DNA of 64,000 bases from Nemertoderma westbladi. Taxonomy: Eukaryota > Animalia > Xenacoelomorpha. The notes below the pieces were generated by a model that saw nothing but the letters and a program-made list of their open reading frames with translations, made no database searches and was not told where the DNA came from. Every line of letters begins with the position of its first letter. Positions within the stretch are counted from its first letter, which is position 1. Shown piece by piece: positions 26,560-63,646 of this stretch. The position numbers and the translations under genes are program-made. The stretch lies in the NCBI GenBank assembly GCA_032718475.1, contig JAUCBJ010007342.1, forward strand, positions 1 through 64,000. Reading direction: 5' to 3'.

Positions 26560-27046
26560 CCGCTCCAAGGGAAATCATATAATGTTTCCCTCCAATTGTA
26601 GAAGAGTATAAGGTGATGTATACAAAACAAAATAAATTTCTTCCAACCAATCTAAATAACATAATAATTCTACTATTTACAAATATTGCCATAGATATTG
26701 CATAATGAATTACATACAAATTAAATTTACAAAATATTATCTCTCTCATTGTTTAACGATTATTACATACAAATTAAATTTACAAAATATTGTTTCTCGT
26801 TCATTCTTACTACATAATGATTACTACATACAAATCAAATATAAAATTTTGCTAGGGCAAGTGAAAGGAGTAAGCCAAACCCGCAGGTTTGTCTCCCCAA
26901 TCACTTCCTTCGCCTCTTTCATAATATAAATTCAAATAACTCAACTAGTGTATACGAGTCTAGTCGAAGATTTTCAAATGCTACAATATACATCAGAGCG
27001 ACGATGATGTATATATCTAGAGTCTGTCGCCCTATGCCATAATGTA

Positions 27047-37701: not shown

Positions 37702-39887
37702 TCTAACTCAGGCCTGCTGGGATTAGAATTACTTCTTACCTGGGCTGCTTCCTTTAACCGTAGGTTGCTAAGCATGTCCGTTATAGGTTGGATGTGCGGC
37801 GATATAGCTTGCGCTAAACTAGCACTTAACTCATCCCTCGTAATAAATTCCTGGCTAGGGTTCTGTTGTATAGTCGGCTCTATCTGAGTAATTCGCTGTC
37901 TCTCATATGATCCCTCTTCCGGTTTAACCCGGAAGTTCTCCGTCGAACTGGGTCGGCGCTCCGTCCGCGTATTCCAAACCCGCGGGTTCGGTTCGCCAAG
38001 TACTCGTCCCGTCGGAGTTTCTTCTCTAAATTCTCCGTTGTCGCGTTCGGTATACAGTGGTGCGGTGTTCCGATGACGTAGATCCTGGGCGATGGGTGAA
38101 GCACTAATACCAACTGGCGTGCGATATGTAGAGAACGGTTTAACGATCCGTGTACTCGTAATAGCTGGACCGGGTATAGGAATTCTGGTCGTCGTCGACT
38201 CGCGTATAGTCGGAGTTCTCGCTTCCTGTTCGGCCTTCTGCAGTGCGAACAGCTCTCGCAACTCTGTCCCTACACTCGCCCCACATTCTTCGATCATTCG
38301 CATCCCCTTCTCGGCGATTTCATTCGCCTTCCTAGTCCATTCTTCGCTCTCTAAACTTAATCTCGCACTTTCCAACTGCGCCAGTTTACGCTCTTCTTCT
38401 TCCCTCGCTCGTCTCGCTGCGCTCTCTTCTTCCACTCGCGCCTTTTCTTCATACAATGCGCGTCTTCTTTTTTCGATCTCGAGTTCGCGTTCCTTGCGTC
38501 CGCGTTCGAGTTGAAGCTCGCGCTCCTTCTGTTCACGATCGAGTTTCTTGCGCTCGCGTTCGGCTTGGAGTTCGCGTTTCTTCGCTTCCTGCTCGCGTTC
38601 GAGTTGGAGTTCGCGTTTCTTCGCTTCCCGCTCGCATTCAAGTTGGAGTTCGCATTCTCTCTGTTCGCGTTCGAGTTCCTCGCGCTCGCGCTCGGCTTGG
38701 AGTTCGCGTTCCCTTTGCTCGCGTTCCGCTCGCTCGCGCTTACTTATCTCTTCCAACTCTCGTAACTCTGCATCCAACTTACGTGTGCGCTCCCGTTCCC
38801 GCTCGGCTTCCTTCCGTGCTTCCTGTGCACGCAAAACTTCCGCCTGCTGTTCGTCTAGTCGGCGTCTTCTCTCCTCCGCCGAGTTGTGAGAAACAAGGGA
38901 TCTAGCACATATTACCTTACCTCGCGCGTGACTAACCTGGGAATCGCCGCTGTCTCTAGATGCATCGTCGGGTGGAGTCAACGTCCTCTGTTGGATGTTC
39001 TCCGTCGTCGGTAGCACCTGACCTGGTACCACCACTCCATTCTGCATCAGCCAGCTAGTAACTTCCCTCTGATAACGGCGCCCTTCTTTATCCTGCGTCT
39101 CTTCACGCTCCACTAAGTCTCTCAACTCTGCGTCACTCACCTGAGTCGCCTGCGTTTGTGATGCCCATAGCAGCCAGTTCTCCGTCCTAACTCGTCGAAA
39201 TCGCTCCGATAACTCGCGGTGCTCCAACAAGGCTGCTAAAACCCTGTCGTAAATCCTCGTTGCTACGTCGCTCGACTGAGACTCTACTGCCTTCTTCGCT
39301 AGGACTGCAAGCTCCTCCGTCTGCTTGAATAACGCTGAGTTATATCCTCTTCTAATTTCTACTAACTCTACCCTCCCGATGTTCGCTGAGTCGGCTAACA
39401 TCTTCCTTACCTTGTCCGTCGTCCGAGTTATATGTCCGGCGTGCGCGCAAAGTTTCTTCTTTATCGCGATATCAAGTTCTCTCTCGCTTACCTGACTCAC
39501 ACTCGGTGGACTTGAAGGATTATTTCGGGAACTACGGGTACTCCTAACAGCCGTCGGGACCACGGCACTTACCATACCCACAGGTCTGGAAACCGGGCTC
39601 CGGGCTCTCGCTTCTGCTACACTACTCTCCCTATCACTCACCTCTGTCCGGGCTGCTGTACAGTCCTTCCTATCAGTAGCGGTAGGGGATCCTAATACTA
39701 TTACTTGAGGTTGCTCTTCTTCCTCACTAGTCACTGTCTCGTCCTCCTGTTCACTTACGTCAGCGTCGCTCGCTGCGTCGTCATAGTCGGGATTGTCGTC
39801 AACAGTAATGTTTACGCTATCGTCAGTCGGCGGTCCAGCCGCCGTCTCATAGCTGTCCTCTAGTGCCTCCTTGTCTGAGACACTCAT
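37686..39887 (-). CDS. Long N-terminal part of gag: acidic leader, helical region and E/R-rich coiled-coil repeats, 733 aa
   Basis: ATG lies 1.1 kb downstream of the 5' LTR. Overlaps the gag-pol frame by about 15 nt at GATAAAAGTC, where removing one base would fuse the two. Confidence 0.8.
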   Translation of the reverse strand: MSVSDKEALEDSYETAAGPPTDDSVNITVDDNPDYDDAASDADVSEQEDETVTSEEEEQPQVIVLGSPTATDRKDCTAARTEVSDRESSVAEARARSPVSRPVGMVSAVVPTAVRSTRSSRNNPSSPPSVSQVSERELDIAIKKKLCAHAGHITRTTDKVRKMLADSANIGRVELVEIRRGYNSALFKQTEELAVLAKKAVESQSSDVATRIYDRVLAALLEHRELSERFRRVRTENWLLWASQTQATQVSDAELRDLVEREETQDKEGRRYQREVTSWLMQNGVVVPGQVLPTTENIQQRTLTPPDDASRDSGDSQVSHARGKVICARSLVSHNSAEERRRRLDEQQAEVLRAQEARKEAERERERTRKLDAELRELEEISKRERAEREQRERELQAEREREELEREQRECELQLECEREAKKRELQLEREQEAKKRELQAERERKKLDREQKERELQLERGRKERELEIEKRRRALYEEKARVEEESAARRAREEEERKLAQLESARLSLESEEWTRKANEIAEKGMRMIEECGASVGTELRELFALQKAEQEARTPTIRESTTTRIPIPGPAITSTRIVKPFSTYRTPVGISASPIAQDLRHRNTAPLYTERDNGEFREETPTGRVLGEPNPRVWNTRTERRPSSTENFRVKPEEGSYERQRITQIEPTIQQNPSQEFITRDELSASLAQAISPHIQPITDMLSNLRLKEAAQVRSNSNPSRPELDKSPT

Positions 39888-41004
39888 AGTCTAAATAATG
39901 TTTGCCTTCCGGCAAAAATATCTCGCAAAAGTTCGAGATATAATTATAATTTAACCGAAAATACGGTCAAATTATTTGTCAAATAATCAGTTGGTCCAAA
40001 ATGTCAAAATAAATTCGCAATGCAATATTGTGAATTTAATGGGGTATATAGTTATAGCAAATACTAACACAATATTTAAACAAAATATTATTATTTAGCT
40101 ATTATATAGCATTAAATACCGGTATAGCACAAAATAACTTTGAATCTAATACAAAATATTCAAAATAAACTTGCCGCCCGAATATTTCTAATTTTATATA
40201 TATAGCTCTAATCAACGTAATTTTAATTTCAAATATTATATGTATCCACTAGCGCGTGGCTACATCTTCGGGTTGCGACTCTCTCTAACTCTCTCTCTAA
40301 CTTGAGCGATTCAAAACCATGGCCGGCTAAACCTAAATATCCTAACTAATAAATTGAGTTCAGCTTCGCAGTTAAACAACCGATAATTTTTTACTGCTTC
40401 CACAAACACACTGGTGCCAACAGAACAACTAACCTTGTTTGCTGTGAGATTCCACGTCCGCGTCCAAAGATTCAGGCCCTTCGCTGATTGCAAACCGAAC
40501 CCGCAGACCCACACGAACCCCAAACTCAGAAGTTCCGTCTTGCCATGTATCTCCAGATGGTATAAAATAACTAAGCGGTTACCTAACATACCGGTACAAA
40601 ACTCTAGAATTTTACAAATAATTTTGACCGAAAACTGAATTCTCGCAAACCTAGCTAAAATTTTCAAAAACTTACTAATTACTGTTTGCCCTAAGGCCTA
40701 AGGAACTGCTGTATTCGCAATTAGCAAAACGCACTACCGTACATTCACTGTATGCAGTACAGTAAGTAAAACAGTACACCAACCTAACAGCCTAATGTAC
40801 TACTGTACTATTGTACGCAGCCAGTGAATACAGTAATCTAAACTAACAGCCTAAAGGAATATACTCAATGTCTTACTGTACGCTAGCCTATAGCCTACAG
40901 CAGACGATCACGTGCTCCAATTTATTGCCTAATACTATGATACTACTATCAGCCTAAGAATACTCTATTGACCGCTGCAAGCAACAGCCAATAGCGCGTA
41001 TTAC

Positions 41005-43208
41005 TGATAAACAACCGCGACCTCTATACTAACAGCAGAACTGTTGAACAGACCAATACCCGTTAATATCCTTCTGCCAACCTAATAAGTTCTCGTCTAA
41101 CCAATAAGACACAAAGACTGCTCTACTGTTAAGTAAAGGGGATCAGGAGCGTGCTATTACTAAATTGTAAGGGTTGCTAAATACAAAACCGCTACTTACC
41201 GTTGGATGGCGCTAATCTGCCGTCCGCTAATATATTTTACTAAATTTACACAACTCCTGCAAAATCACTTGTTCCTTTCTCTACCGATCGCTCGATAGAG
41301 AGCTAACTGTTCGAATCTATGAGCCACGCGGGAATAACCAAAACAATAAACCCGAGTCGGCTCCCTAAGCTTACTTAAGACGAGTGCGAGAGGCCTTGCA
41401 CTCAGAGTATTCTTACGCCTAATTCTATCACTTATTAAAGCACGCTATTACCTACGTCTTTCCTAATCGCGAATACTGGAGGTTCCCTAACGTAATGTGT
41501 GAATGCGAGAATATTTAAAATAATCAAAAATGGTACAGTAACTGTTTCTACGTGGATAGTACCACTCCGAGTCTAAAACTGCCCGCGGCTGGCTTTAGGC
41601 CAGCAAAACTACTAGCGTATCGTGCGTACCGAATAGTGCGTTCTAGCTGATTGCCCGCTAATGCAAATAACCGCTCAGCGTGAATAGTTTACAGTACACT
41701 AATTATTACCTTAGCTACTCTCCGCTATGCTGCGTACTAATTCTTAATTTTTACTAATTAATTACAGTCACAAATATTTAACAGCGTACTAATTACTAAG
41801 AGTTCCAGAATACGTAATTCTAATTTATCACGCAACAGGTTTCGCTAGTAATAGCCTAAATTGCCGTATTACTTTGACCTAATCAATAACTAATTATTGT
41901 AACTAAGAAATAGAAATCAATCAAAGGGAAAAGAGCGCCTATCTAAGCATTCGTAATCATAGGCACACTTCAATAACACACCAATCAGCGTTAGAAATCA
42001 CAGTTTACAATTGTGCAATTCACTACTCGTACTCCACACTCAACGTTGTAATACGCGCAGGCCTCTCCCAGATACATCTAGGATTCCTAACTAACCCAAT
42101 TCCTGCCCCCCTAATACTAAATAGAGACAAAACCTGGATCATCAGCCCCCTAGATACTGTACCAGCGATTGGTCTGCGTGCCGCAGTGCAAGATACCCGC
42201 CCGCAACGGTGACCCTGGCCAGCGTTGCCCGCTTTGAATCCTCCGCTCTCTCCTAGTCGCTCAACCCCCCGATGCGCCCACCGCCCACTGGCACCTTAGC
42301 CCTCCATGATGCTAATAGCTACCGTAGCGGCGCATGCAAATCACAAAGTCTGACAGTCTCAGAAATCCCTTAGGATTATTGCGCAGAAAGGAATCACATA
42401 GAACCATTAATCAAAGGGTAGAAATCATAGTTCAATTGTAATTAGCAGCAATCGAAGGAATTATTGAGAAACACAAGCAAAGTAATCGCACTAGCAAATC
42501 ATTCCAAGAAATTAATCAAAATTAGCAAATTGCAGAAAATACGATATCCTAATACAAAATTAGAGACAGCTCAGCAAGTAAATTGTAACAGGGGTGTGTC
42601 ATGTGATAAGTAAGGGTATACAGTATTAACAGCATGAACATATAGGTTCTACCGGCACACCGCCAATTTATAGGTGATCCGGATGGGGTGATGCAATAAG
42701 GTGACTCAATCGCTCTCCCATTGGCTCTCCAGTCCGTGCTAGCATTAAACCAACCTGGAAGCAGTTAGTCCAATAAGGAGGCCGGATTGTAGTCCTATCG
42801 CTTGCCCAAACCTCGAATTATTACCTTATATGGTAATGGTTCACGTCCCTGGCCGCTGAATGGCCAGGACAGCGTCCCTATGATAGCCCTACTGATGCTA
42901 ATATCAGCAAGCACAAAAATCCAGGGTCCGAATAAACTTGCTACCCTGGGACTATCTACATATATCTTAATACAAAATTACGTAGGTAGGGCTACATACT
43001 ATACAAAATGGATGGATGCAAAATATATGGGCGTTTTAACTTCCTTACCTAAATGTCACCGCACTGTGCCTTATCTAAATAATTATACTGCACAACGGAC
43101 TAATATTACGTACAGTATAACGGACTAATATTGCATACTGCATAACGGACTAATACTGCATACAGTATAACGACTAATAATGTGGATACAGCGCCATATA
43201 CCGTAACA
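41005..43208 (-). repeat. 5' LTR (2204 bp)
   Basis: Partner of 24355-26559, followed by TSD CTGCC. Confidence 0.97.
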
Positions 43209-43412: not shown

Positions 43413-46400
43413 GAGTGTTGAAAAATAACGATAATAACGCTGAGTTCAAAAAATATCGAGAGGAAAAATATCGAGAGTAAAAATATCGAGTGTTGAAAAA
43501 TATCGAGAGTAAAAATATCGAGTGTTGAAAAATATCGAGAGTAAAAATATCGAGTGTTGAAAAATATCGAGAGTAAAAATATCGAGTGTTGAAAAATATC
43601 GAGAGTAAAAATATCGAGTGTTGAAAAATATCGAGAGTAAAAATATCGAGTGTTGAAAAATATCGAGAGTAAAAATATCGAGTGTTGAAAAATATCGAGA
43701 GTAAAAATTTAAAAAGTAAAAAAATTTTTAATAAGGGTTGTATGATATTTTTTTTCATAGAAATGATCTAGAACAAAAAAAAGTGTTCTAGAAAAAAATT
43801 ATTTATCTAAATTGGTAGCTTACACGTGTTCTATAACATTTATAAAAAGAAGTTGAAACTTCCTGCTACTACCAGGTAACTAATACCAGGTACTAACAAG
43901 TATAAAACATTGAAAATGTGATCTAGAACTAAAAAATGTGTTCTATAACAAAAAAATTTATCAAAATTTATAGCTAGCACATCTTCTATAATATTTATTA
44001 AAAAATAGCAAAAACTAGCTAGTATAATAAATCTGGTAAATGGGTACCCAAGGTGTATTACATAATGCCATTCACTTGCACTTGCACTGTTGTAACCCAT
44101 GCACTGCAACAGCCGGCACAGCATTCTTAAAAATGCAGCTGCAATGCAGCATGCCGATCCTAGTAGTAGTATGCACTGCAATATTGTCCCATAATTCTAA
44201 ATAAAATGCTCAAGCAAAATGCAATATTTTTACTCTCGATAGTTTTCAACACCCGATATTTTTACTCTCGATATTTTTCAACACTCGATATTTTTACTCT
44301 CGATATTTTTCAACACTCGATATTTTTACTCTCGATATTTTTCAACACTCGATATTTTTACTCTCGATATTTTTCAACACTCGATATTTTTACTCTCGAT
44401 ATTTTTCAACACTCGATATTTTTACTTTCGATATTTTTCAACACTCTCAACACTCGATATTTTTCAACACTCGTTAATTTTACTCTCGATATTTTTCAAC
44501 ACTCGATATTTTACTCTCGATATTTTTACTCTCGATATTTATCAACACTCGATATTTTTCAACACTCGAGATTTTTCAACACTCGATATTTTTACTCTCG
44601 ATATTTTACAACTCTCGATATTTTTCAACACTCGATATTTTTACTCTCGATATTTTTACCCTCGATATTTTTCAACACTCGATATTTTTACTCTCGATAT
44701 TTTTCAACACTCGATATTTTTCAACACTCGAGATTTTTCAACACTCGATATTTTTACTCTCGATATTTTTCAACACTCGATATTTTTACTCCCGATATTT
44801 TTACCCTCGATATTTTTCAACACTCGATATTTTTACTCTCGATATTTATCAACACTCGATATTTTTACTCCCGATATTTTTACCCTCGATATTTTTCAAC
44901 ACTCGATATTTTTACTCTCGATATTTTTCAACACTCGATATTTTTACTCTCGATATTTTTCAACACTCGATATTTTTACTCTCGATATTTTTCAACACTC
45001 GATACCTCTTTTTACTCTCGATATTTTTCAACACTCGATATTTTTACTCTCGATATTTTTCAACTCTCGATATTTTTCAACACTCGAGATTTTTCAACAC
45101 TCGATATTTTTACTCTCGATATTTTACAACTCTCGATATTTTTCAACACTCGATATTTTTCACTCTCGATATTTTACAACTCTCGATATTTTTCAACACT
45201 CGATATTTTTACCCTCGATATTTTTCAACACTCGATATTTTTACTCTCGATATTTATCAACACTCGATATTTTTCAACACTCGAGATTTTTCAACACTCG
45301 ATATTTTTACTCTCGATATTTATCAACACTCGATATTTTTCAACACTCGAGATTTTTCAACACTCGATATTTTTACTCTCGATATTTTACAACTCTCGAT
45401 ATTTTTCAACACTCGATATTTTTACTCTCGATATTTTACAACTCTCGATATTTTTCAACACTCGATATTTTTACTCTCGATATTTTACAACTCTCGATAT
45501 TTTTCAACACTCGATATTTTTACTCTCGATATTTTACAACTCTCGATATTTTTCAACACTCGATATTTTTACCCTCGATATTTTTCAACACTCGATATTT
45601 TTACTCTCCATATTTATCAACACTCGATATTTTTCAACACTCGAGATTTTTCAACACTCGATATTTTTACTCTCGATATTTTACAACTCTCGATATTTTT
45701 CAACACTCGATATTTTTACTCTCGATATTTTTACCCTCGATATTTTTCAACACTCGATATTTTTACTCTCGATATTTTTCAACATTCGATATTTTTACTC
45801 TCGATATTTTTCAACACTCAATATTTTTACTCCCGATATTTTTACCCTCGATATTTTTCAACACTCGATATTTTTACTCTCGATATTTATCAACACTCGA
45901 TATTTTTACTCTCGATATTTTTACCCTCGATATTTTTCAACACTTGATATTTTTACTCTCGATATTTTTCAACACTCGATATTTTTACTCCCGATATTTT
46001 TACCCTCGATATTTTTCAACACTCGAGATTTTTCAACACTCGATATTTTTAAACGCTCTATATTTTTCAACATTCGATATTTTACTCTCGATATTTTTCA
46101 ACACTCGATATTTTTACTCTCGATATTTTTCAACACTCGATATTTTTACTCCCGATATTTTTACCCTCGATATTTTTCAACACTCGATATTTTTACTCTC
46201 GATATTTATCAACACTCGATATTTTTCAACACTCGATATTTTTACTATCGATATTTTTCAACACTCGATATTTTTACTCTCGATATTTTTCAACACTCGA
46301 TATTTTTACTCTCGATATTTTTCAACACTCGATATTTTTACTCCCGATATTTTTACCCTCGATATTTTTATTCTCGATATTTTTCAACACTCGATATTTT

Positions 46401-49018
46401 TACTCTCGATATTTATCAACACTCGATATTTTTCAACACTCGAGATTTTTCAACACTCGATATTTTTACTCTCGATATTTTACAACACTCGATATTTTTA
46501 CTCTCGATATTTTTACCCTCGATATTTTTCAACACTCGATATTTTTACTCTCGATATTTTTCAACACTCGATATTTTTACTCTCGATATTTTTCAACACT
46601 CCATGTTTTTACTCTCGATATTTTTCAACACTCGATATTTTTATTCTCGATATTTTTCAACACTCCATGTTTTTACTCTCGATATTTATCAACACTCGAT
46701 ATTTTTCAACACTCGAGATTTTTCAACACTCGATATTTTTACCCTCGATATTTTTCAACACTCGATATTTTTACTCTCGATATTTTTCAACACTCCATGT
46801 TTTTACTCTCGATATTTATCAACACTCGATATTTTTCAACACTCGAGATTTTTCAACACTCGATATTTTTACTCTCGATATTTTTCAACACTCGATATTT
46901 TTACTCTCGATATTTTTACTCTCGATATTTTTCAACACTCGATATTTTTACTCTCGATATTTTTCAACACTCGATATTTTTACTCTCGATATTTTTCAAC
47001 ACTCCATGTTTTTACTCTCGATATTTTTCAACACTCGATATTTTTCAACACTCGATATTTTTCAACACTCGATATTTTTACTCTCGATATTTTTACCCTC
47101 GATATTTTTCAACACTCGATATTTTTACTCTCGATATTTTTCAACACTCGATATTTTTACTCTCGATATTTTTCAACACTCCATGTTTTTACTCTCGATA
47201 TTTTTCAACACTCGATATTTTTATTCTCGATATTTTTCAACACTCCATGTTTTTACTCTCGATATTTATCAACACTCGATATTTTTCAACACTCGAGATT
47301 TTTCAACACTCGATATTTTTACCCTCGATATTTTTCAACACTCGATATTTTTACTCTCGATATTTTTCAACACTCCATGTTTTTACTCTCGATATTTATC
47401 AACACTCGATATTTTTCAACACTCGAGATTTTTCAACACTCGATATTTTTACTCTCGATATTTTTCAACACTCGATATTTTTACTCTCGATATTTTTCAA
47501 CACTCGATATTTTTACTCTCGATATTTTTACCCTCAATATTTTTCAACACTCGATATTTTTACTCTCGATATTTTTCAACACTCGATATTTTTACTCTCG
47601 ATATTTTTCAACACTCGATATTTTTACTCTCGATATTTTTCAACACTCCATGTTTTTACTCTCGATATTTTTCAACACTCGATATTTTTACTCTCGATAT
47701 TTTTCAACACTCGATATTTTTACTCTCGATATTTTTCAACACTCGATATTTTTACTCTCGATATTTTTCAACACTCGATATTTTTACTCTCGATATTTTT
47801 CAACACTCCATGTTTTTACTCTCGATATTTTTCAACACTCGATATTTTTACTCTCGATATTTATCAACACTCGATATTTTTCAACACTCGATATTTTTCA
47901 ACACTCGATATTTTTACTCTCGATATTTTTCAACACTCCATGTTTTTACTCTCGATATTTATCAACACTCGATATTTTTCAACACTCGAGATTTTTCAAC
48001 ACTCGATATTTTTACTCTCGATATTTTACAACTCTCGATATTTTTCAACACTCGATATTTTTACTCTCGATATTTTTACCCTCGATATTTTTCAACACTC
48101 GATATTTTTACTCTCGATATTTTTCAACACTCGATATTTTTACTCTCGATATTTTTCAACACTCCATGTTTTTACTCTCGATATTTTTCAACACTCGATA
48201 TTTTTACTCTCGATATTTATCAACACTCGATATTTTTCAACACTCGAGATTTTTCAACATTCGATATTTTTACTCTCGATATTTTGCAACCCTCGATATT
48301 TTTCAACACTCATTAATTGTACTCTCGATATTTTTCAACACTCGATATTTTTCAACACTCGAGATTTTTCAACACTCGAGATTTTTCAACACTCGATATT
48401 TTTACTCTCGATATTTATCAACACTCGAGATTTTTCAACACTCGAGATTTTTCAACACTCGATATTTTTACTCTCGATATTTATCAACACTCGATATTTT
48501 TCAACACTCGAGATTTTTCAACACTCGAGAATTTTTAACACTCGATATTTTTCAACACTCGATATTTTTACTCTCGATATTTATCAACACTCGATATTTT
48601 TCAACACTCGAGATTTTTCAACACTCGAGATTTTTCAACACTCGATATTTTTCAACACTCTAGATTTTTCAACACTCGATATTTTTACTCTCGATATTTT
48701 TCAACACTCGATATTTTTACTCTCGATATTTTTCAACACTCGATATTTTTCAACACTCGATATTTTTACTCTCGATATTTTTACCCTCGATATTTTTCAA
48801 CACTCGATATTTTTCAACACTCGTTATTTTCGATATTTTTCATCTCGCGTTATTTTTACTCTCGATATTTTTTAATCACGTTAATTTTCAACACTCGTTA
48901 TTTTTACTCTCGATATTTTTTAATCACGTTAATTTTCAACACTCGTTATTTTTACTCTCGATATTTTTACTCTCGTTATTTTTACTCTCGATATTTTTGA
49001 GTCTCGATATTTTTCACC
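43413..49018. repeat. Satellite of alternating 15-17-bp units (CTCGATATTTTTACT / CTCGATATTTTTCAACA) in two inverted blocks, about 43450-43706 and 44224-49015
   Basis: Directly visible. The left block is the reverse complement of the right block, around an AT-rich core of about 500 bp. Confidence 0.95.
44110..44170 (+). mobile_element. 61-bp RTE 3'-end insertion
   Basis: Matches 22101-22160. TSD ATGCACTGCAA at 44099-44109 and 44171-44181. Confidence 0.88.
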
Positions 49019-52652: not shown

Positions 52653-53798
52653 TACGCCCACCCCTACCCTTGGGTAGCAGATAGGAGTAACGCCCACCCC
52701 TACCCTCGGGTAGCAGATAGGAGTAGCGCCTAGCCCTACCCTCGGGTAGCAGATAGGAGTAACGCCCACCCCTACCCTCGGGTAGCAGATAGGAGTAGCG
52801 CCTAGCCCTACCCTCGGGTAGCAGATAGGAGTAGCGCCCACCCCTACCCTCGGGTAGCAGATAGGAGTAGCGCCCACCCCTACCTTCGGGTAGCAGATAG
52901 GAGTAGCGCCCACCCCTACCTTCGGGTAGCAGATAGGAGTAGCGCCCACCCCTACCCTCGGGTAGCAGATAGGAGTAGCGCCCACCCCTACCCTCGGGTA
53001 GCATATAGGAGTAGCGCCCACCCCTACCTTCGGGTAGCAGATAGGAGTAGCGCCCACCCCTACCCTCGGGTAGCATATAGGAGTAGCGCCCACCCCTACC
53101 CTCGGGTAGCAGATAGGAGTAGCGCCCAGCCTTACCCTCGGGTAGCAGATAGGAGTAGCGCCCATCCTTACCTTTGGGTAGCAGGTAGGAGGAGTAGCGC
53201 CCACCCCTACCTTCGGGTAGCAGATAGTAGTAGCGCCCATCCTTACCCTCGGGTAGCAGATAGGAGTAGCGCCCATCCTTACCCTCGGGTAGCAGATAGG
53301 AGTAGCGCCCATCCTTACCCTCGGGTAGCAGATAGGAGTAGCGCCCATCCTTACCCTCGGGTAGCAGATAGGAGTAGCGCCCCCCCTTACCCTCGGGTAG
53401 CAGATAGGAGTAGCGCCCATCCTTACCCTCGGGTAGCAGATAGGAGTAGCGCCCATCCTTACCCTCGGGTAGCAGATAGGAGTAGCGCCCATCCTTACCC
53501 TCGGGTAGCAGATAGGAGTAGCGCCCATCCTTACCCTCGGGTAGCAGATAGGAGTAACGCCAATCCCTACCTTCGGGTAGCAGATATGTGTAGCGCCCAC
53601 CCCTACATTCGGGTAGCAGATAGGAGTAGCGCCCACCCCTACCTTCGGGTAGCAGATAGGAGTAGCGCCTACACCTTCGGGTAGCAGATAGGAGTAGCGC
53701 CCACCCCTACCCTCAGGTAGCAGATTGGAGTAGCGCCCACCCCTACCTTTGGGTAGCAGATAGGAGTAGCGCCTACCCCTACCTTCGGGTAGCAGATA
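52653..53798. repeat. 33-bp minisatellite array, left part
   Basis: GGGTAGCAGATAGGAGTAGCGCCCACCCCTACC(C/T)TC units. Confidence 0.97.
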
Positions 53799-54113
53799 TT
53801 TTTTTTTTGATTGATGCGCTTGTTGGCGCCATCATCCGGACCAGCCGGCATTTAATTAGACTTCACTTTAGTAAAAACCAAAAATTACAGTATAGGTACA
53901 CATCAAAATTGCACTAATAGCACATCAAACACGTTATTAATAATGCATAACAAAACAGCATAATAAAATCATGGATCGTGATAAAAGTATAGTACAGTAT
54001 TGTTATAGGATAACATTAGACACATACCAACATTATTAACAATCATCATTAAATATATCACTACACACAGAACTCAATCGATATTTGTTGCAATGAGACA
54101 TTAATGCTTCCAC

Positions 54114-57100
54114 CTAAAATTGAAAGTAGTTGTGGACCAGGCTTACTTTGTTAGCGAAGGTTAAACCATTTGTAGCATAACAGGCTCTCAGAAAGTTGTA
54201 GCTACCAAAGTCTGTGGTAGTTGCTGCACCTTCATCCATCCGTGATCTCAGTTCCTCATTGGAGTAGGTATAGTTTAGCATATTAAACATGGATGGAAGG
54301 CCTGATGTCTGTCTAGCAATCTCGTATGTGTGACTCAGCCCCATCTTCACGTTATTTGACGCAAGTGAATTCGTCATCAACAAGTACCGCAGATTCTGCT
54401 GGAGTGACTCCTTTGGACATCGAGATATCCGTCTAATCAATCCAATTGAGCGTTCTGACACAAGATTACTAAGTGAAGATGCTCCATACAGCAAGCATAG
54501 AGCTGAGTTTGACACACGATTATTACAGTACATGAGACCACGCATGATTTTACGAAACTGTCCATTCAGCGATTCCACTTCAGTACCTGAAAGCATTCCA
54601 AAATTAAATTCTAGGCCATAAAGGATACCAGGCACAGCGACAGCATTCCATAGCCTGGCAATGCATTCCGCAGGAAATTGCCGTACTGTCCAACCCCTGG
54701 TGTGGAAGATCGCCCCCATTGACGATATCCTGCGTCGACATTCATTTAGAAGCTGGTATGGAGATTGGTAGAAAGTAAATCCAAGGAAAGATATTGACTT
54801 AGTGAACAGTACATTTGTACCAAGGATTGATAGCGTTCTGTCAGAGAGACTCTGCACTTTAGATGACCCATTTACCATTGTCCAGTGAGTTTTACTTATG
54901 GAGATAGAAAGTCCAATTTTCTTTAGCTCGGTATCCAGAAGTACCATCATATTGTCGATGTCCCCACCGCATTCAGCAAATAAAATGATATCGTCGGCAT
55001 AGTTGAGGATGGAGACACTGCGATTCATAATAATTCTACACCCCAGTCCAGAATTCTTAACAGCCTCAATTGCATCAGAAATATAAAAATTAAACAGGAT
55101 CGGTGAAAGGATAGATCCTTGCTTAACTCCATTTCTTGGAGTGAAGCTATTGATGTCAACCTCCTCACCAAATTTGAAAAAGAAACGGCCACTAAGGTAA
55201 TACTGCAGAAGGAGTCTACACACTGATGGATTTATAACACTGGATAACTTCTCAAACAGAACTCTGAAGTCAACTGTGTCGAATGCTGAGTCAATATCTG
55301 TCTGGCACAAGTACACTGGAGCTCGGCTACTGTTAAAGTGGTTTATAATCTCATATGCTAGACTGATAGAAGTGTCACACCCAATGCCTTTCTGGTACGC
55401 CATCGACAGCTCATGCGGTTTTATGACACTCCGAAGAAATTCTGAGAGGCAAATCGCTTCCAAGATCTTTGCAATAATATTGACCGTAGACACCGGACGA
55501 TATGAGGATGGATGAAATCTATCTTTCCTGTGACCCTTATAGATACATGTAATTATCGTCTCCCCAAGAAGTTGGGGACAATGACCTAGGCGCAACGATG
55601 TTCTAAAGATATTGTGGAGAACCCCTACAACAAGAGTTGGATTAAGAGCTAGTAGGTGCTCCACTACTAGTGATGCAGAGTCTGGCGACTTATTTTTGTT
55701 CAACGAGAGAATCGCAGTCCTTATGGTTTCTGATGAAATTTCGGGTACAGTTGAGTTGTTACAGATGAGATCAAGTTTGCTTTTGATATCGGTATAAACC
55801 TGTTTATCTTTTTTCTGTAGCTGATTCTGAATATGAGCCCGCACGGAGTCCCTTGAGTTTGCAGGAACATTATTACCACCATCATCTTTCAGACGACCTT
55901 TTGTGTCCATAGTTCTCCAGAAGGATCTATCGTTGTTTAGGTTTTTGACGAGGTGGCACTCTGCTAAGTTCCGAAACAATTTATTCTTCAGTCTCCGAGT
56001 AGCTTTCCGTGATGCCTTAATGTCCTTCAATAGAGGATCCTGTGGATCAGACCCATTCCGGAGCCAAAGGTGGTGCAGTTTGGATGTTGTTTTAGAGTAG
56101 TCCTTCAACCTTTCATTGCGAATACGTAGATTTCATGTTCTTTTCTGCATCTTCTTGTGAGGTATATTCTCAATGGCTGAACGGAAAATCGCTACAGAGA
56201 CTTCCAGAGTGAAGGAGTCCAGGTCATTTTTTGACCATGAGTCTGATGGGGGATAACATTCTAAGATTTTAGACATTTTCTGCTCGAAGGCATTATTATA
56301 TACTAGTATCTGACTAGAGGTAGCTTTCCCCCAGTGAAATCGAGTTAATTTACGAATATTTAAGCTTTCAGGTACGGTAGCACCACCAGGCAAGTCAAGT
56401 TCCATTGTAATTGCAAAATGATCTGAGAAGTTCATTTTATCTGGGGCTGAATTCACTGGATCCTCAAAGAGTACCTTACCTGAGAGTACCCGAAGCTGGT
56501 TAGTGCCAACAATATGGTCGATGTAAGATGTAGCTCCACTGGTATCACAGTGGAAGGTAAATTGGGGACCACTGATACATGATTTCGTATCTAGACATGA
56601 TGCATGTATGTTTTCTAAGAATTCTAAAAGGTTTCTTCCACGTTGAGTAGGCACTGTTCTACAGAATCGTGTGCAATTTGAACTACCAATATCAGCATTA
56701 AAATCACCCAGTACAATAGGCACTGCTGATGGATGTGCCACAATGGTATCCTCGAGTCTTCCAATAAAATCAGTGTACTCTTCTTGGGGCTTAGAAGCAT
56801 CAGGAGCATAAACACTAAGCATAAGAAGTTGTGACCCCATGAAGGAGGTTAGGGCACCAACAATGTCATCCTTGGAGCGTACCGGGCAGATATTTTTGAA
56901 AATTTTTGTATCAAGGATAAGAGCTACACCACCAACTCCTCTTTTCCTATTAGGATTGTTCATTTTTTCAGATACAGAAAATAGGCATCTAAAATTGCTG
57001 GACAGCCTTTTATTAAAAACTCCAGCCATCTCCTGGTGATCACACCAGTGTTCCTGTAGTGCTAGAATACAATTAGTACGTAGTAGTTCATCAACATAGG

Positions 57101-57236
57101 CAAGGTTTGTCGCAATTCCATGACAATTAAGAGTTGCGCAGTGTAAAGAGTTAGTATCGGTATCTTCTCGGCACACCAAATTCCCCTCCTGTACGACTTC
57201 CCCCCCTACATCTGGCAATGTGTCCTTGACGTCCAT
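54114..57236 (-). CDS. LINE ORF2 (APE endonuclease plus RT) interrupted by one in-frame TGA at 56133-56135
   Basis: ATLNCHG, LQEHW, GGVALI, SVYAP, LGDFN, SYIDH, SDH. SYRPVS, DIDSAFD, GVKQGSILSPILF, YADD, FLG, LYGLE. The two track ORFs share a frame (KRT*NLRIRNERLKDY). The start codon is uncertain. Confidence 0.9.
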
Positions 57237-60200
57237 AAAAGGGCACCGTTTGTTCCATCTTGTCTGTTGCATCAGTAAAAGCATACTGGCGGTATTCCCA
57301 TTCTACACATACAAATCCTTGTGGCCAGAATCCTGTTGAGGTTAGAGCACTGGCATCATTTGCATTCACCACTAACTGCATGTTCTTATCCCTATTGTAG
57401 AACCTTGTAGAAATTTTTAGCACTTTAATTCCCACCTCGTTACAGTATCCATCAATCAAACCCTCGGCACAGTCAGCCTTCATTCCAGTGAGATATAAGG
57501 TTTTAGTCTGAGCACACGTATCACCTTGATTTAACTGCCTTTTATTGTGATTGTATAATACTGGGTTAACCTTATCACTCTCACTACCTGGTCGTTTAAA
57601 TCTGTGGCCTGATGTCATTGATGACCCAAAAGGATGTGAGATAGGTTTAGAGTCTTCCAAATCATCAGGTGTATGACTAAGGACCGTGAACCTATTGTCA
57701 CAATTTACAGCCGGTCTACTGTTGTGTAGTCTTGTTTGGTGATGTAACTCATCTCTGGGCCTATGTGACTGCCTGACCATATGAAAAGGCTTTTCTATAT
57801 TACCTTCTATAACTCTGCTTTGTCTGACCTTATCACCATCAAGAATCTTTAGATCCCCATTGATACCAGGGCGAGATCTACCATGACCATGTGAAACTTG
57901 CATATTTCTGTTGAATGGACCTGTTGACACTGTTCTACTCTTACCCATATTCATTTCAAGACTCTGTGTTTGGTTGCTAGTATGACTCTCTATCGGTTTC
58001 CCCCATGCATTGTGGGTTAGTTTTCCTGTGGGGTTTTGAACATCTATGGGTTTGTCTGATACAATGTGCTGAACATGCTTCACATACTCATTATTACAAT
58101 CGCCCCTCTCAGTTACAGTATGTCTTCCTTGTGAGACCCTCAACGGATTACTCGCAACAGCACTATCACACATAACCGATCTTGTTATATGTCGTGTACG
58201 TCTCTCATTTTCAAGCTGATCCCTTAGATCTATATTTTCTTGCTCAAGAGACTTTACCCTTAGTTCCATTCCTGATAGTCTACTTTGTATGTGACCAATA
58301 AGTGCATGAATCTCCATGCTAGCAGGTGGTTGGGCAGGAAGGAATTCTCGCTTCAAACGTTTCTTACAGGCCGCTGTTAAGGTTCCATTTACACGTGATC
58401 TATGAAGCTCGAAAATGTCCTGTGCCAGTTGCGCTTCTGATGATCTATGGTTCAAGTGAAAGGTAACTGTCTCCGAAGCACTCAGAGTTGGTTTGATCTC
58501 TGAGAAAAGGCAGATGCGTGCATTCATGAGTTCATTAAACTTCCTATTACTTAACTTTGACACAGCATATTTACGGGGCAGTTGAAGAATCCTCTGTATA
58601 CTTTGGCTGATTGGTGAGACCATTAGTTTGGAAGGCGAGATGTGTTTCGATTCGTCCCTTCCTTGACAATTGGGTATCAAAGAACCAACCAGTACATCAG
58701 TTGACTTCCTAGTATTTGACGTCGGTGGTTCAAATTCATCGGGGGCATAGTATTTCACATTGTCCAGGCATTTAGAAATCCAATTTCTACATCTATCACT
58801 GTCAGTGTGAAAATGTGAAACTTTGGAGTTAGTGGCGATTGCGTTAGCAAAGAGGCAGACGTAAACTCCACAGTCATAAGAGTTCTCCTGTGTTGGGTAC
58901 TTGTGACCGCTAGGGGTAGTTGTAACTTTCCATGCATGCTGTCTTTCCCGGTTTTCATATTTGTCTATTGCCGGCTCACTGGTGGTCAGGTTGTCCATTA
59001 GGTTTAATAACTCACAGATTTGGAAAGCTATTTTACCTGGCAGTGATGCGGTTGATGAGATGGTGTATACAAGTCGCATCTTCAGATCAGCCACATGAAG
59101 AACAAAATGTTCTTTGTTATAACATTCTGGTATCAGTAAAAACTCAGGTCTGGCAGACATGTATTTGCCGAAATATGGAATGGCCATAAGTTGGATGGCG
59201 AATAAAGTATCGTATTTTTCCACTGCTAGTTTCTGACATAAATCACTTTGAACTGATGCCACATGTGGGAATTGCTTTCTAAGTAAGCCAAGAAAACTAT
59301 CCACTACAGTGTCGCTCAGCCACTCTTTACATTCTAGGGTTTTCATATCCTTTCGCTCAGGAAGGACGTTTGGTGGCTGATCATTGTTCAGTTGATTTAG
59401 GTATATGGTAATTTGTTCAAGATCAGCCATTTTGGGTTGTAAGTTTTTGTCAATTTTTTTGACAAAGTGTATATCTACATCATCCTCATTTTTATGAGCC
59501 CCAATTTTGTCCACGAAATGCACATCCGCTTCATCTACCTTAGTTTTATTTTCACTATGTCTCTTAGTGTTATCGCTTTCATTGAAAGTATAAACAATAT
59601 TTGTTTTACTAAAAGTTACCTTTTTTGTGAAAATTATGTCGTCTGTACATGATGAAACTTTTGGTTTAAAAAAATGAGTTATCAGATTTTTAGGATTAGG
59701 CATATACTGGGTTCCCCAGTTCTTTATAGCTAGAGTATCTGTTTGCAAACCCGGAGGGTCCATGGAAGACATTGGCGAGCGCCCACTCGTAGAATGGGGA
59801 TCCGCTGGTGATCCACTCGGAGGCGTGGTAACCGCTGGTGAACCACTCGGAGGTGGGGGAACCTCTGGCGAGCCACTCGTAGGCGGGAGATCCACTGGTG
59901 AACCACTCGGAGGCGTGGGAACCACTGGCGAACCACTCATAGGCGAGAGATCCGCTGGTGAACCACTCAGAGGCGTGGGAACCGCTGGCGAACCACACGT
60001 AGACGGCAGATCCGCTGGCGAACCACTCGTAGGCCGGAGATCCGCTGGCAAGCCACTCGGAGGCGTGGGAACCTCTGGTGAACCACTCATAGGTTGTGGA
60101 ACCGCTGGCGACCCACTCGTAGGCGGGAGACCCGCTGACGAACCACTCAGTGGTGGGGGAACTGCTGGCGAAACACTCGTAGGCGGGAGATCCGCTGGCG

Positions 60201-61788
60201 AATCATTCGGAGGCGTTGGAACCTCTGGCGAACCACTCATAGGTTGTGGAACCGCTGGTGAACCACTCATAGGTGGGTGATCCGCTGTCGAACCACTCAG
60301 AGGTGGGGAAACCGCTGGAGAACCACTCGTAGGCGGGAGATCCGCTGGTGAACCACTCAGAGGTGGGGAAACCACTGGCGGACCACTCGTAGGCGGGAGA
60401 TCCGCTGACGATCCACTCGGAGGCGTGGGAACCGCTGGCAAAACACTCGGAGGCGTGGGAACCGCTGACGAACCACTCAAAGGTGGGGGAACCGCTGGCG
60501 AACCACTCAAAGGTGGGGGAACCGCTGGGGAACCACTTGGGGGCGTGGTATCTGATGGCGAACCATTCGGAGGCATGGGAACCGCTGTCGAACCACTCGG
60601 AGGCATGGGAACCACTGGCGAACCACTCGGAGGCGTGGGAACCGCCGGCGACACACTCTGAGGTGGGGGAACCGCTGGCGAACCACTCAGAGGTGGGGGA
60701 ACCACTGGGGAACCACTCGGAGGCGTGGTATCCGATGACAAACCATTCCGAGGTGTGGGAAACGCTGGCGAACCACTAGGAGGCGTGGGAACCGCTGACG
60801 AACCACTCAAAGTTGGGGGAATCGCTGGGGAACCACTCAGAAGTGGGGGAAACGCTGGCGAACCATTCGGAGGCGAAGGATCTGATGGCGAACCACTCGG
60901 AGGCGTTGGAACCGCTGGCGAACCACTCGGAGGCGTGGGAACCGATGACAAACCACTCAAAGGTGGGGGAATCGCTGGGGAACCACTCGGAGGCGTGGTA
61001 TCTGATGGCGAACCATTCGGAGGTGTGGGAACCACTGTCGAACCACTAGGAGGCGTGGGAACTGCTGGCAAACCACTCGGAGGCGTGGGAACCGCAGGCG
61101 ACCCATTCTGAGGTGGGGGAACCACTGGCGTCCCACTCAGTGGTGGAGGAACCGCTGGCGACCCACTCAGAGGTGGGGGAACTGCTGGCGAACCACTCAG
61201 AGGCGTGGGAACCGCTGGCGACCCACTCAGAGGTGGGGGAACCGCTGGCGAACCACTCAGAGGCGAGGGAAGCGCTGGCGATGAAATGTTACATGTTACC
61301 ACGGCCGCTGGATGTTTATAGAAATGAGTTATCAGGTTATTAGATTTATGCATTTCCTGGGGTCCCCAGTTCTTTGTAGCCGGTAGGTCCATGGGATCTG
61401 TTGGCGAGACCACCGCAGTCGATGGATCCCTTAGCGAACCCTCCGCAGTTGAGGGATCCTTAGGCGAACCCGCCGTGGTTGAGGAATCCTTTAGCGAACC
61501 CGCCGATGTCGAGGAATCCTTTAGAGCACCCGCCGCGGTCGATTTGATCAAACTCGGCGGGTCCCGGAGTCCCTCGGAACCGGACTTCGCGTCGGCGTTA
61601 ACTCCGTTGGTAGAGCCTGATAGATCCTCTGGAAAGATTGCATTACTCTTTCGATCCAAGAGTGATAACGCACGCTTTAGTTTCTCTGCACGAGTTCCTG
61701 CAGTCGGCAAATCATTTTTGTCGAGAAACCGTTTAAGATTGTTGGTGTTCATCTTCCGAATGCGTACATATTCCATTTTCTTCGGCAC
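57151..61788 (-). CDS. LINE ORF1, 1545 aa: SAP domain, Pro/Ser 10-aa repeats, Ulp1/SENP (C48) protease-like domain, coiled coil and C-terminal RRM-like ORF1 domain
   Basis: IRKMNTNNLKRFLDKNDLPTAGTRAEKLKRAL (SAP). DMKTL..EWLSDTVVDSFL, LLIP...EHFVLHVAD, PTQENSYDCGVYVC (Ulp1). LELRVKSLEQEN-like coil (MELRVKSLEQENIDLR). TLYLTGM...FWPQGFVC. Confidence 0.88.
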   Translation of the reverse strand: MPKKMEYVRIRKMNTNNLKRFLDKNDLPTAGTRAEKLKRALSLLDRKSNAIFPEDLSGSTNGVNADAKSGSEGLRDPPSLIKSTAAGALKDSSTSAGSLKDSSTTAGSPKDPSTAEGSLRDPSTAVVSPTDPMDLPATKNWGPQEMHKSNNLITHFYKHPAAVVTCNISSPALPSPLSGSPAVPPPLSGSPAVPTPLSGSPAVPPPLSGSPAVPPPLSGTPVVPPPQNGSPAVPTPPSGLPAVPTPPSGSTVVPTPPNGSPSDTTPPSGSPAIPPPLSGLSSVPTPPSGSPAVPTPPSGSPSDPSPPNGSPAFPPLLSGSPAIPPTLSGSSAVPTPPSGSPAFPTPRNGLSSDTTPPSGSPVVPPPLSGSPAVPPPQSVSPAVPTPPSGSPVVPMPPSGSTAVPMPPNGSPSDTTPPSGSPAVPPPLSGSPAVPPPLSGSSAVPTPPSVLPAVPTPPSGSSADLPPTSGPPVVSPPLSGSPADLPPTSGSPAVSPPLSGSTADHPPMSGSPAVPQPMSGSPEVPTPPNDSPADLPPTSVSPAVPPPLSGSSAGLPPTSGSPAVPQPMSGSPEVPTPPSGLPADLRPTSGSPADLPSTCGSPAVPTPLSGSPADLSPMSGSPVVPTPPSGSPVDLPPTSGSPEVPPPPSGSPAVTTPPSGSPADPHSTSGRSPMSSMDPPGLQTDTLAIKNWGTQYMPNPKNLITHFFKPKVSSCTDDIIFTKKVTFSKTNIVYTFNESDNTKRHSENKTKVDEADVHFVDKIGAHKNEDDVDIHFVKKIDKNLQPKMADLEQITIYLNQLNNDQPPNVLPERKDMKTLECKEWLSDTVVDSFLGLLRKQFPHVASVQSDLCQKLAVEKYDTLFAIQLMAIPYFGKYMSARPEFLLIPECYNKEHFVLHVADLKMRLVYTISSTASLPGKIAFQICELLNLMDNLTTSEPAIDKYENRERQHAWKVTTTPSGHKYPTQENSYDCGVYVCLFANAIATNSKVSHFHTDSDRCRNWISKCLDNVKYYAPDEFEPPTSNTRKSTDVLVGSLIPNCQGRDESKHISPSKLMVSPISQSIQRILQLPRKYAVSKLSNRKFNELMNARICLFSEIKPTLSASETVTFHLNHRSSEAQLAQDIFELHRSRVNGTLTAACKKRLKREFLPAQPPASMEIHALIGHIQSRLSGMELRVKSLEQENIDLRDQLENERRTRHITRSVMCDSAVASNPLRVSQGRHTVTERGDCNNEYVKHVQHIVSDKPIDVQNPTGKLTHNAWGKPIESHTSNQTQSLEMNMGKSRTVSTGPFNRNMQVSHGHGRSRPGINGDLKILDGDKVRQSRVIEGNIEKPFHMVRQSHRPRDELHHQTRLHNSRPAVNCDNRFTVLSHTPDDLEDSKPISHPFGSSMTSGHRFKRPGSESDKVNPVLYNHNKRQLNQGDTCAQTKTLYLTGMKADCAEGLIDGYCNEVGIKVLKISTRFYNRDKNMQLVVNANDASALTSTGFWPQGFVCVEWEYRQYAFTDATDKMEQTVPFYGRQGHIARCRGGSRTGGEFGVPRRYRY
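59770..61275 (-). repeat. Coding 30-bp tandem repeat (SGSPAVPPPL-type), about 50 units, inside ORF1
   Basis: In-frame, diverged units with no stop in the ORF1 frame. Confidence 0.93.
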
Positions 61789-62005
61789 TCAAGAGTACTC
61801 GGCCTTCGCTCGAATGGCGTCGTAGTTCGCAGAAACGCAGATATTGTAATTAAAATGTAATAAAATGTAAATAAAAGTGTATTGGCACCAATACAGTACA
61901 CGGTACAGCAGTATTGTAGTAGCACAGCAGTACGGTACAGCAGCAATTCAACGCAGTCTTCAGTACGCTACACAAATGAATGCCAATAGAAGTCGCTGAA
62001 TATCA

Positions 62006-63646
62006 ATAGGAGTAACGCCAATCCCTACCTTCGGGTAGCAGATATGTGTAGCACCCACCCCTACATTCGGGTAGCAGATAGGAGTAGGAGTAGCGCCCAT
62101 CCCTACCCTCGGGTAGCAGATAGGAGTAACGCCAATCCCTACCTTCGGGTAGCAGATATGTGTAGCACCCACCCCTACATTCGGGTAGCAGATAGGAGTA
62201 GCGCCCACCCCTACCCTCGGGTAGCAGAGAGGAGTAGCGGCCACCCCTACCCTCGGGTAGCAGATAGGAGTAGCGCCCACCCCTACCCTCGGGTAGCAGA
62301 TAGGAGTAACACCAATCCCTACCTTCGGGTAGCAGATATGTGTAGCGCCGACCCCTACATTCGGGTAGCAGATAGGAGTAGCGCCCACCCCTACCCTCGG
62401 GTAGCAGAGAGGAGTAGCGCCCACCCCTACCCTCGGGTAGCAGATAGGAGTAGCGCCCACCCCTACCCTCGGGTAGTATATAGGAATAGCGCCCATCCCT
62501 ACCTTCGGGTAGCAGATGTGTAGCGCCCACCCCCACCTTCGGGTAGCAGATAGGAGTAGCGCCCAGCCTTATCTTCGGGTAGCAGATAGGAGTAGCGCCC
62601 ACCCCTACCTTCGGGTAGCAGATAGGAGTAGCGCCCACCCCTACCTTCGGGTAGCAGATAGGAGTAGCGCCTACCCCTACCTTCGGGTAGCAGATAGGAG
62701 TAGCGCCCACCCCTACCTATGGGTAGCAGATAGAAGTAGCGCCCACCCTTACCTTCGGGTAGCAGATAGGAATAGCGCCCACCCCTACCTTCGGGTGGCA
62801 GATAGGAGTAGCGCCTACCCCTACCTTCGGGTAGCAGATAGGAGTAGCGCCCACCCCTACCTTCGGGTAGCAGATAGGAGTAGCGCCCACCCCTACCTTC
62901 GGGTAGCAGATAGGAGTAGCGCCCACCCCTACCTTCGGGTAGCAGATACGAGTAGCGCCCACCCCTACCTTCGGGTAGCAGATAGGAGTAGCGCCCACCC
63001 CTACCGTCGGGTAGCAGATAGGAGTAGCGCCCACCCCTACCTTCGGGTAGCAGATAGGAGTAGCGCCCACCCTTACCCTCGGGTAGCAGATAGGAGTAGC
63101 GCCCACCCCTACCTTCGGGTAGCAGATAGGAGTAGCGCCTACCCCTACCTTCGGGTAGCAGATAGGAGTAGCGCCCACCCCTACCTTATGGTAGCAGATA
63201 GGAGTAGCGACCATCCCTACCTTATGGTAGCAGATAGGAGTAGCGCCCACCCCTACCTTCGGGTAGCAGATAGGAGTAGCGCCTACCCCTACCTTCGGGT
63301 AGCAGATAGGAGTAGCGCCCACCCCTACCTTCGGGTAGCAGACAGGAGTAGCGCCTACCCCTACCTTCGGGTAGCAGATAGGAGTAGCGCCTACCCCTAC
63401 CTTCGGGTAGCAGATAGGAGTAGCGCCCACCCCTACCTTCGGGTAGCAGACAGGAGTAGTGCCTACCCCTACCTTCGGGTAGCAGATAGGAGTAGCGCAC
63501 ACCCCTACCTTCGGGTAGCAGATAGGAGTAGCGCACACCCCTACCTTCGGGTAGCAGATAGGAGTAGCGCCCACCCCTACCCTCGGGTAGCAGAGAGGAG
63601 TAGCGCCCACCCCTACCCTCGGGTAGCAGATAGGAGTAGCGCCCAC
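62006..63646. repeat. 33-bp minisatellite array, right part
   Basis: Same unit and orientation as 52653-53798. Confidence 0.97.

Follow-up and report, generated by a model that had tools for sequence, protein, structure and literature searches.

Structure and setting of the element

We analysed a 64,000-nt stretch of the xenacoelomorph Nemertoderma westbladi (contig JAUCBJ010007342.1), called the window here; all coordinates are window positions. On its minus strand lies a full-length long interspersed nuclear element (LINE) with two open reading frames (ORFs), the first of which encodes a Ulp1/SENP-like C48 protease domain. The parts of the element and its flanks are:

53799..62005, minus strand: full-length two-ORF LINE of the apurinic/apyrimidinic endonuclease (APE) and reverse transcriptase (RT) type, ~8.2 kb (sequence, ORFs, Pfam)
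61777..62005, minus strand: 5' untranslated region, ~230 nt; the ATG context is AAAATGG (sequence)
57151..61776, minus strand: ORF1, 1541 aa, open (ORF list)
54114..57284, minus strand: ORF2, overlapping the end of ORF1, with APE at ~56418-57137 and RT at ~54771-55520 (ORFs, Pfam)
53799..54113, minus strand: 3' untranslated region, with a 10-nt poly(A) tail at 53799-53808 (sequence)
62006..63646, no strand: 36-bp tandem array of the 5' flank; TAT at 62006-62008 is the minimal target-site duplication (repeats, sequence)
52655..53798, no strand: 36-bp tandem array of the 3' flank; TAT at 53796-53798 (repeats, sequence)

The LINE interrupts the 36-bp tandem array, and TAT is duplicated at both element ends. 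ORF2 matched the Pfam profiles for APE (PF03372, E = 8.6e-13) and RT (PF00078, E = 3.8e-27). The element is an APE-type two-ORF LINE, with APE and RT in ORF2, a coiled coil and RRM-like end in ORF1, a poly(A) tail, a target-site duplication and an apparent truncated copy. The ORF1 frame (57151-61788, minus strand) measures 1545 aa from stop to stop and 1541 aa from the ATG at 61776. It has no internal stop codon, as stated in the original prediction, which was made from the sequence alone and described an intact 1545-aa ORF1. The word intact is limited to ORF1, since ORF2 of the window copy has one in-frame stop at 56133-56135. This stop position is a sense codon in contigs of runs X1, X2 and X3, so the window copy is a slightly decayed family member or an allele. 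A contig of run X4 matches 53850-55304 (the 3' 1.45 kb) before running into other sequence, and looks like a 5'-truncated copy.

A single contig spans the 5' junction, and it enters the 36-bp array by 30 letters only. Because the 36-bp unit has very high depth in the runs and recurring loose ends on both sides, it seems to be part of a longer high-copy repeat. A third array of this unit was found in the window at 7273-7543.

ORF1 combines an added arm with an ordinary core

We found that ORF1 consists of an ordinary ORF1 core, its last 500 aa, and an added arm, its first ~1,000 aa. The division was drawn there because a coiled coil and an RRM-like end follow the protease. The parts of ORF1 are:

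61672..61761, minus strand: SAP-like motif, aa 6-35 (PF02037, below the cut-off)
61393..61542, minus strand: first, short array of 30-bp units (~4) (repeat finding)
61318..61374, minus strand: KNWG...LITHF[YF] motif, copy 1; its core resembles a PIP box (motif comparison)
59773..61263, minus strand: 50 in-frame 30-bp units encoding Ser/Pro decamers, aa 172-668, a predicted flexible spacer (repeats)
59668..59724, minus strand: KNWG...LITHF[YF] motif, copy 2 (motif comparison)
59464..59646, minus strand: three acid-flanked hydrophobic motifs like SUMO-interacting motifs (SIMs), aa 711-716, 747-754 and 764-771 (motif count against shuffles)
58747..59364, minus strand: Ulp1/SENP-like C48 domain, aa ~805-1010 (Pfam, PDB sequence match, model)
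59107-59109, 59056-59058, 58888-58890 and 58870-58872, minus strand: active-site codons of the C48 domain for H890, S907, Q963 and C969, respectively
58192..58299, minus strand: predicted coiled coil, aa ~1160-1195 (heptad count, weak coiled-coil Pfam matches)
57298..57507, minus strand: C-terminal RRM-like domain, ending in a WP motif common to related LINE ORF1s (profiles, model)

The coiled coil and RRM-like end noted from the sequence were both recovered. Hydrophobic residues occupy 9 of 14 a/d positions at aa 1153-1200. With a profile made from the ORF1 ends of 21 related loci, the end of this ORF1 scored 9.2 bits and the highest of 500 shuffles 5.7; a profile of this end with 20 related ends matched hnRNP RRMs (E = 1e-4). 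The model of the end had a predicted local distance difference test (pLDDT) score of 85.9, and its top Foldseek rows were RRMs, at E = 1.5e-3 or weaker. Profiles and model thus give moderate support to an RRM-like identity. A high-depth X3 contig skips 34 bases at 57329-57364, in this RRM-like end. ORF1 has no more than two Gly-Gly pairs, at aa 1525 and 1530 (57184-57204). Both fall where ORF1 and ORF2 overlap, shortly ahead of the endonuclease, and seven consecutive G underlie the first.

The arm precedes the core on its 5' side and shares a reading frame with the one suitable ATG, and a repeat search found no terminal, inverted or direct repeats bounding it. A module of 30-bp repeats closed by a KNWG...LITHF[YF]K motif occurs twice in the arm, and the two motif copies are identical at 14 of 26 residues. 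The second array, of 50 in-phase decamers, is the stretch that had been described as about 500 aa of Pro-rich repeats. Judged by the PIP-box consensus, the PIP-box-like (PCNA-binding) core of the motif was not enriched, as its pattern was reached in 101 of 1000 shuffles.

The arm contains a C48 domain that retains Cys, His and Gln

The C48-type protease domain of the original prediction was borne out by profile, PDB sequence match and fold model. PF02902 matched above its cut-off of 20.7 bits both on the whole ORF1 (E = 5.6e-8, 33.3 bits) and on the domain alone (E = 1.2e-9, 38.7 bits), and the best PDB sequence match was yeast Ulp1 (E = 1.2e-10). The model, built from 38 sequences in a SENP-rich alignment, had a pLDDT of 82.5, a Foldseek match to Ulp1 at E = 7.6e-12, and a match to SENP5 with Z = 25.2 and a root-mean-square deviation (rmsd) of 2.2 over 184 residues. 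The domain has the C48 (CE-clan) fold and belongs to this family. It shares with cellular Ulp1 and SENP1/2/3/5 the fold (Z 21-25, rmsd 2.0-3.0), WLxD, His, Gln and Cys, at an identity of about 18-23%; identity to the 37 aligned homologues is 19-29%. W819, H890, Q963 and C969 are present, the W and D of WLxD are retained, and H890, Q963 and C969 fall in invariant columns among the 38 aligned sequences. A protease tree placed the domain on a long branch (2.09 changes per column), along which the active-site motifs persist, and resolved no donor.

The retained His, Gln and Cys and the Ser found 17 residues after the His, where Asp is expected, were confirmed as H890, Q963, C969 and S907. This column holds Asp in 33, Asn in 3 and Cys in 1 of the 37 homologues. 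The homologues with a non-Asp third residue are P0004, P0041, P0033 and P0010 (Asn in three, Cys in one). Another C48 protein, P0002, combines C48 with a weak PHD match, as in Ginger/Mutator elements. The domains of NeSL and Utopia retrotransposons have Asp in 7, Asn in 3 and Cys in 2 of 12 cases at this site, against Asp throughout the 10 cellular rows (PMC4640811 S5 Fig). With 5 of these 12 proteases also lacking Asp, the Ser is, as far as alignments go, less odd than originally thought. USP16, USP30 and USP45 are active enzymes in which Ser replaces Asp/Asn (PMC8550791), and Cys-His-Ser triads are described in Tae3, RavD and vasohibin (PMC10318531).

The domain might instead be a near-dead pseudoprotease that binds SUMOylated proteins as a trap or reader and so helps to dock the element's RNA-protein particle on chromatin or shields SUMO marks. 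Such a role could draw on the SIM-like motifs and on the Ser in place of Asp, a replacement seen in 0 of the 37 homologues. However, the Cys, His and oxyanion Gln are retained, erosion has affected the SUMO-contact surface more than the catalytic residues, which is the opposite of a trap's need, and Ser triads can be active by analogy with the enzymes above. Because Cys, His and Gln are kept while the substrate surface is worn, a working enzyme fits better, and we consider a trap distinctly improbable. Of the two options first offered, a deSUMOylase or a SUMO trap, sequence comparison makes the former likely, while the latter is weakened by the kept residues and the Cys-His-Ser precedents.

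Motifs facing the substrate

Among PDB sequence matches, SENP1/2 were found at E values of 1e-6 to 1e-4 (SENP1 at 1e-6) and the NEDD8 protease SENP8 at 0.08, so that, by sequence, SUMO proteases rank above the NEDD8 protease for this domain. SUMO proteases contact SUMO through WLxD, S/T-F-F, R-W and H-W motifs. Of these four, only WLxD is kept. Unlike in cellular Ulp1 and SENP1/2/3/5, which have Asp where this domain has Ser, S/T-F-F reads S-D-L (the second position is F, H or Y in 30 of 37 homologues), R-W is absent, and Phe replaces Trp after the catalytic His (W in 34 of 37). A deSUMOylase is thus likely rather than certain, as the domain lacks the S/T-F-F and R-W motifs that most homologues have. 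By eye, the NeSL/Utopia domains have also lost the F-F and R-W motifs (PMC4640811 S5 Fig).

Three SIM-like motifs, which the original prediction had not listed, lie within ~95 aa N-terminal of the C48 domain. A pattern based on the SIM consensus, written after the motifs had been seen, gave 3 observed against a shuffle mean of 0.13, with 3 reached in 2 of 1000 shuffles. As sequence motifs, they support a link to SUMO.

An active protease could also have another substrate: it may process proteins of the element itself, or it may remove NEDD8, ubiquitin or a different modifier. The replaced SUMO-side motifs, likewise replaced by eye in NeSL/Utopia domains, fit such a substrate, and C48-like enzymes act on NEDD8 and ubiquitin, while viral relatives process polyproteins (PMC10318531). 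Against this, the sequence favours Ulp1/SENP1/2 over SENP8 by several orders of magnitude, and SIM-like motifs lie next to the domain. For self-processing, the sole Gly-Gly pairs of ORF1 lie in the ORF overlap, right before the endonuclease; however, they stem partly from the G run, two pairs are no excess, and cleavage there would be relevant only given a hypothetical ORF1-ORF2 fusion. Overall, another substrate appears unlikely.

The arm in other copies or alleles

Compared with the window, eight listed contig pieces of run X1 have 32 differing letters in 6391, and eight of run X2 have 28 in 6395; at 0.4-0.5% divergence from the window copy, these represent other copies or alleles. X1 and X3 come from a single sample, and either best-matching run may be the window's own source. 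No RNA run was listed among those with the sequence, which carries no information on expression. Contig differences described here are among the 40 listed of 277. The X1 contig across the C48 domain has 7 differences, all listed, and none falls in the His, Ser, Gln or Cys codons. The corresponding X2 contig has 7 differences, 6 of them listed; since 3 substitutions would be needed to turn the Ser codon into Asp or Asn, and 2 for Glu or Gln, the single unlisted change cannot convert it to any of these. The X3 contig has 10 differences, of which the 6 listed do not settle the state of the Ser codon. The comparison of triad residues across copies that had been proposed with the original prediction thus found the domain in other copies or alleles, and the Ser is not decay of one copy, because the X1 and X2 contigs also carry the domain without Asp.

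The arm is continuous with its surroundings in these contigs. In X2, one contig runs from the SIM-like region through the protease into the downstream linker (58571-59649), and in X4 a contig spans 58463-58614 and enters the ORF1 core; X4 contigs leave the protease uncovered, a hole that proves nothing. Contig depth, which is no copy number, is level across the protease/core boundary in X1 (94/87) and X2 (83/80). X3 contigs are richer in differences and indels, which suggests a decayed subfamily.

The arm could be a passenger, acquired in this lineage from a DNA transposon or host gene, that is carried in frame and drifts without function. No like architecture was found in 1.84 billion representatives or in 80 related LINE loci, the differences between copies look neutral, and Ulp1 is common in Ginger1 and Mutator transposons (PMC2836005). 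Yet the 4.6-kb frame is open through 50 repeats with the arm in frame 5' of the core, no inverted or direct repeats lie at the arm ends, contigs from two studies carry the arm, and the active-site motifs persist on the long branch of the protease tree. We therefore regard a drifting passenger as improbable.

Searches for relatives

A word-based protein search found no relative of ORF1 aa 690-1541 (0 of 3224 candidates), and none of the protease among longer proteins (0 of 371 candidates). The 42 matches among the 1.84 billion representatives were to generic C48 proteins and all fell on the protease region; the ORF1 core drew no match. For the post-repeat part of ORF1 the Atlas had no usable match; for the C-terminal part it gave only unnamed eukaryotic clusters, at 0.89. 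Viral contigs yielded no relative of ORF1 (0 of 5 candidates). The C48 profile had no match in any of the 80 related LINE loci, which are distant and have a recognisable ORF1 end in only 21 cases.

The RT had 37 matches at 22-35% identity, and 80 metagenome loci were found. A quick RT tree of 101 rows covering at least 170 query residues (shorter rows were dropped, and no named clade references were included) placed the element on a long branch (2.27) outside the main 80-row group. From its motifs, the element may be Proto2/RTEX-like. The N-terminal ORF1 domain of 12 loci, used as a profile, had no match in this element. Related-loci ORF1s with an upstream stop (13 of the 21 recognised) are 146-611 aa long, against 1541 aa here.

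Comparison with other mobile elements

Zisupton DNA transposons carry SAP, SWIM and SUMO-protease domains, so that a SAP or SAP-like motif together with a Ulp1-like domain is shared with this element; our literature search found nothing on Zisupton, and this part of the original survey of Ulp1-bearing elements stands as general background. A Zisupton insertion was rejected, since Pfam showed neither a SWIM nor a transposase domain and the arm is not flanked by terminal inverted repeats. The rest of that survey, which named NeSL, Ginger and Mutator, agrees with published work (PMC4640811, PMC2836005).

The NeSL elements of nematodes and Utopia-1_TSP are single-ORF non-LTR retrotransposons with Ulp1 domains, in which one protein combines zinc fingers, RT and a C-terminal restriction-like endonuclease (RLE) (PMC4640811). 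In contrast, this element has two ORFs and an N-terminal APE, and its ORF1 protease is preceded by a SAP-like tip, a spacer of repeats and SIM-like motifs. Its C48 domain looks nearer to yeast Ulp1 than to the published NeSL rows, as judged by eye rather than computed. Membership of the NeSL/Utopia clade was rejected on the basis of the two ORFs and the N-terminal APE, in place of a single ORF with a C-terminal RLE.

Ginger1 and Mutator DNA transposons commonly carry Ulp1 domains, for which a role in transposition or DNA repair has been proposed (PMC2836005). They resemble this element as mobile elements with a Ulp1 domain, but they are DDE cut-and-paste elements with Ulp1 on the transposase or an accessory gene, whereas here it sits on the RNA-binding protein of a retrotransposon.

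Like ORF1 types I-V of APE LINEs, this ORF1 combines a coiled coil and an RRM with a variable accessory domain; the accessory domains of these types are PHD, esterase and CCHC (PMC4120745), in keeping with the original statement that APE-LINE ORF1s usually carry PHD, esterase, RRM or CCHC domains. The terms protease, Ulp1, SAP and SUMO never occur in the main text of that survey of 448 Jockey-group elements, nor in the part covered of an L1 survey (PMC5203782). Our literature search, which covered few subscription journals and no Repbase, found no APE-LINE ORF1 with Ulp1; a prior description is possible.

Other features of the window

A BEL/Pao-type long terminal repeat (LTR) element lies at 26436-43179 on the minus strand, with DUF1759, Peptidase_A17, integrase and DUF5641. 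It has extra ORFs with no confident Pfam match, of 734 aa upstream (37686-39890) and of 1013 and 242 aa downstream (27047-30817). One 25-bp tandem unit occurs at both 26436-26530 and 43085-43179, possibly in LTRs ~16.6 kb apart, a spacing that would be unusually long. Among repeats at 22503-23522 lies an uninterrupted 339-aa mitochondrial carrier ORF (PF00153, E = 1e-64), possibly a retrocopy or an intronless gene. The window also contains a second, unrelated APE-RT ORF (1045 aa, 13183-16320), an RT fragment (3-818) and an integrase zinc-finger ORF (1777-2976). A 4.8-kb satellite at 44224-49016, with 17/32-bp units and strong strand skew, yields long spurious open frames.

A possible role for the protease arm

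The explanation that we prefer, and hold to be about evenly balanced between right and wrong, is that the ORF1 arm of this APE-RT LINE is a likely active Cys-His-Ser isopeptidase that likely deSUMOylates host proteins met by the particle. The protease would probably be active, perhaps slowly, given its active-site residues. We lean slightly towards SUMO as its substrate, with the three SIM-like motifs compensating for the lost surface contacts. More tentatively, the 500-aa spacer may allow the protease to range around the particle, with the SAP-like tip bound to nucleic acid. SAP motifs are not known to have sequence specificity, and because ORF1p travels with its RNA, action at the particle or at a fresh insertion is more plausible than a patrol of old copies. 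The C-terminal core would very probably package the element's RNA, by analogy with other ORF1 proteins (PMC4120745).

Several observations weigh against this explanation. Apart from the worn SUMO-contact motifs and the SIM pattern fitted after the fact, the model's ranking of SENP5 above SENP8 is not independent, because the alignment was SENP-rich. The N-terminal SAP of the original prediction holds as a similarity (PF02037, E = 0.0012 on the first 59 aa) and fails as a threshold match (18.8 bits against a cut-off of 23.9), with a best PDB match at E = 0.37. A SAP in ORF1 is therefore only suggestive, and the accompanying term DNA-tethered depends on this sub-threshold match. Variation in the decamer array is even across codon positions (80/78/71), so that only its length and frame look constrained. 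The 23 differences listed in ORF1, of which 17 change a residue and 6 are silent, show no sign of purifying selection, and their pattern is as in private decay. In X3, contig depth is 138 over the ORF1 core and 50 over the protease. These searches found no relative with such an ORF1 outside N. westbladi, which leaves conservation across species unsupported. The arm may also have been captured recently from an unsampled donor in which the Ser was already present.

The benefit to the element could be relief from SUMO-dependent restriction, either silencing at a new insertion or SUMO-driven particle turnover, although we consider this less likely than not. TRIM28-type silencing, one of the pathways that the original prediction held to require SUMO, is linked to SUMO as general background. 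For the other, piRNA-guided transcriptional silencing, SUMO is essential in Drosophila (PMC10363806). A bolder and rather unlikely version is that an APE-LINE lineage independently captured a SUMO protease as a tethered counter-defence arm of ORF1p, made up of a nucleic-acid tip, the 500-aa spacer, SIMs and a Cys-His-Ser protease. This arm would erase SUMO marks required for piRNA-type silencing where the element itself has inserted. If true, this would be a LINE-encoded enzymatic anti-silencing factor.

Ulp1 domains recur in unrelated mobile elements, and the literature covered offers only proposals for their role. Here Ulp1 is part of the protein with which the main LINE type packages its RNA, in a compact and foldable form with SIM-like neighbours and a natural Ser variant of the triad. 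The element opens two testable questions, whether a transposon Ulp1 acts on host SUMO and whether a CE-clan protease can work with Cys-His-Ser, and it adds an enzyme to the list of known ORF1 accessory domains.

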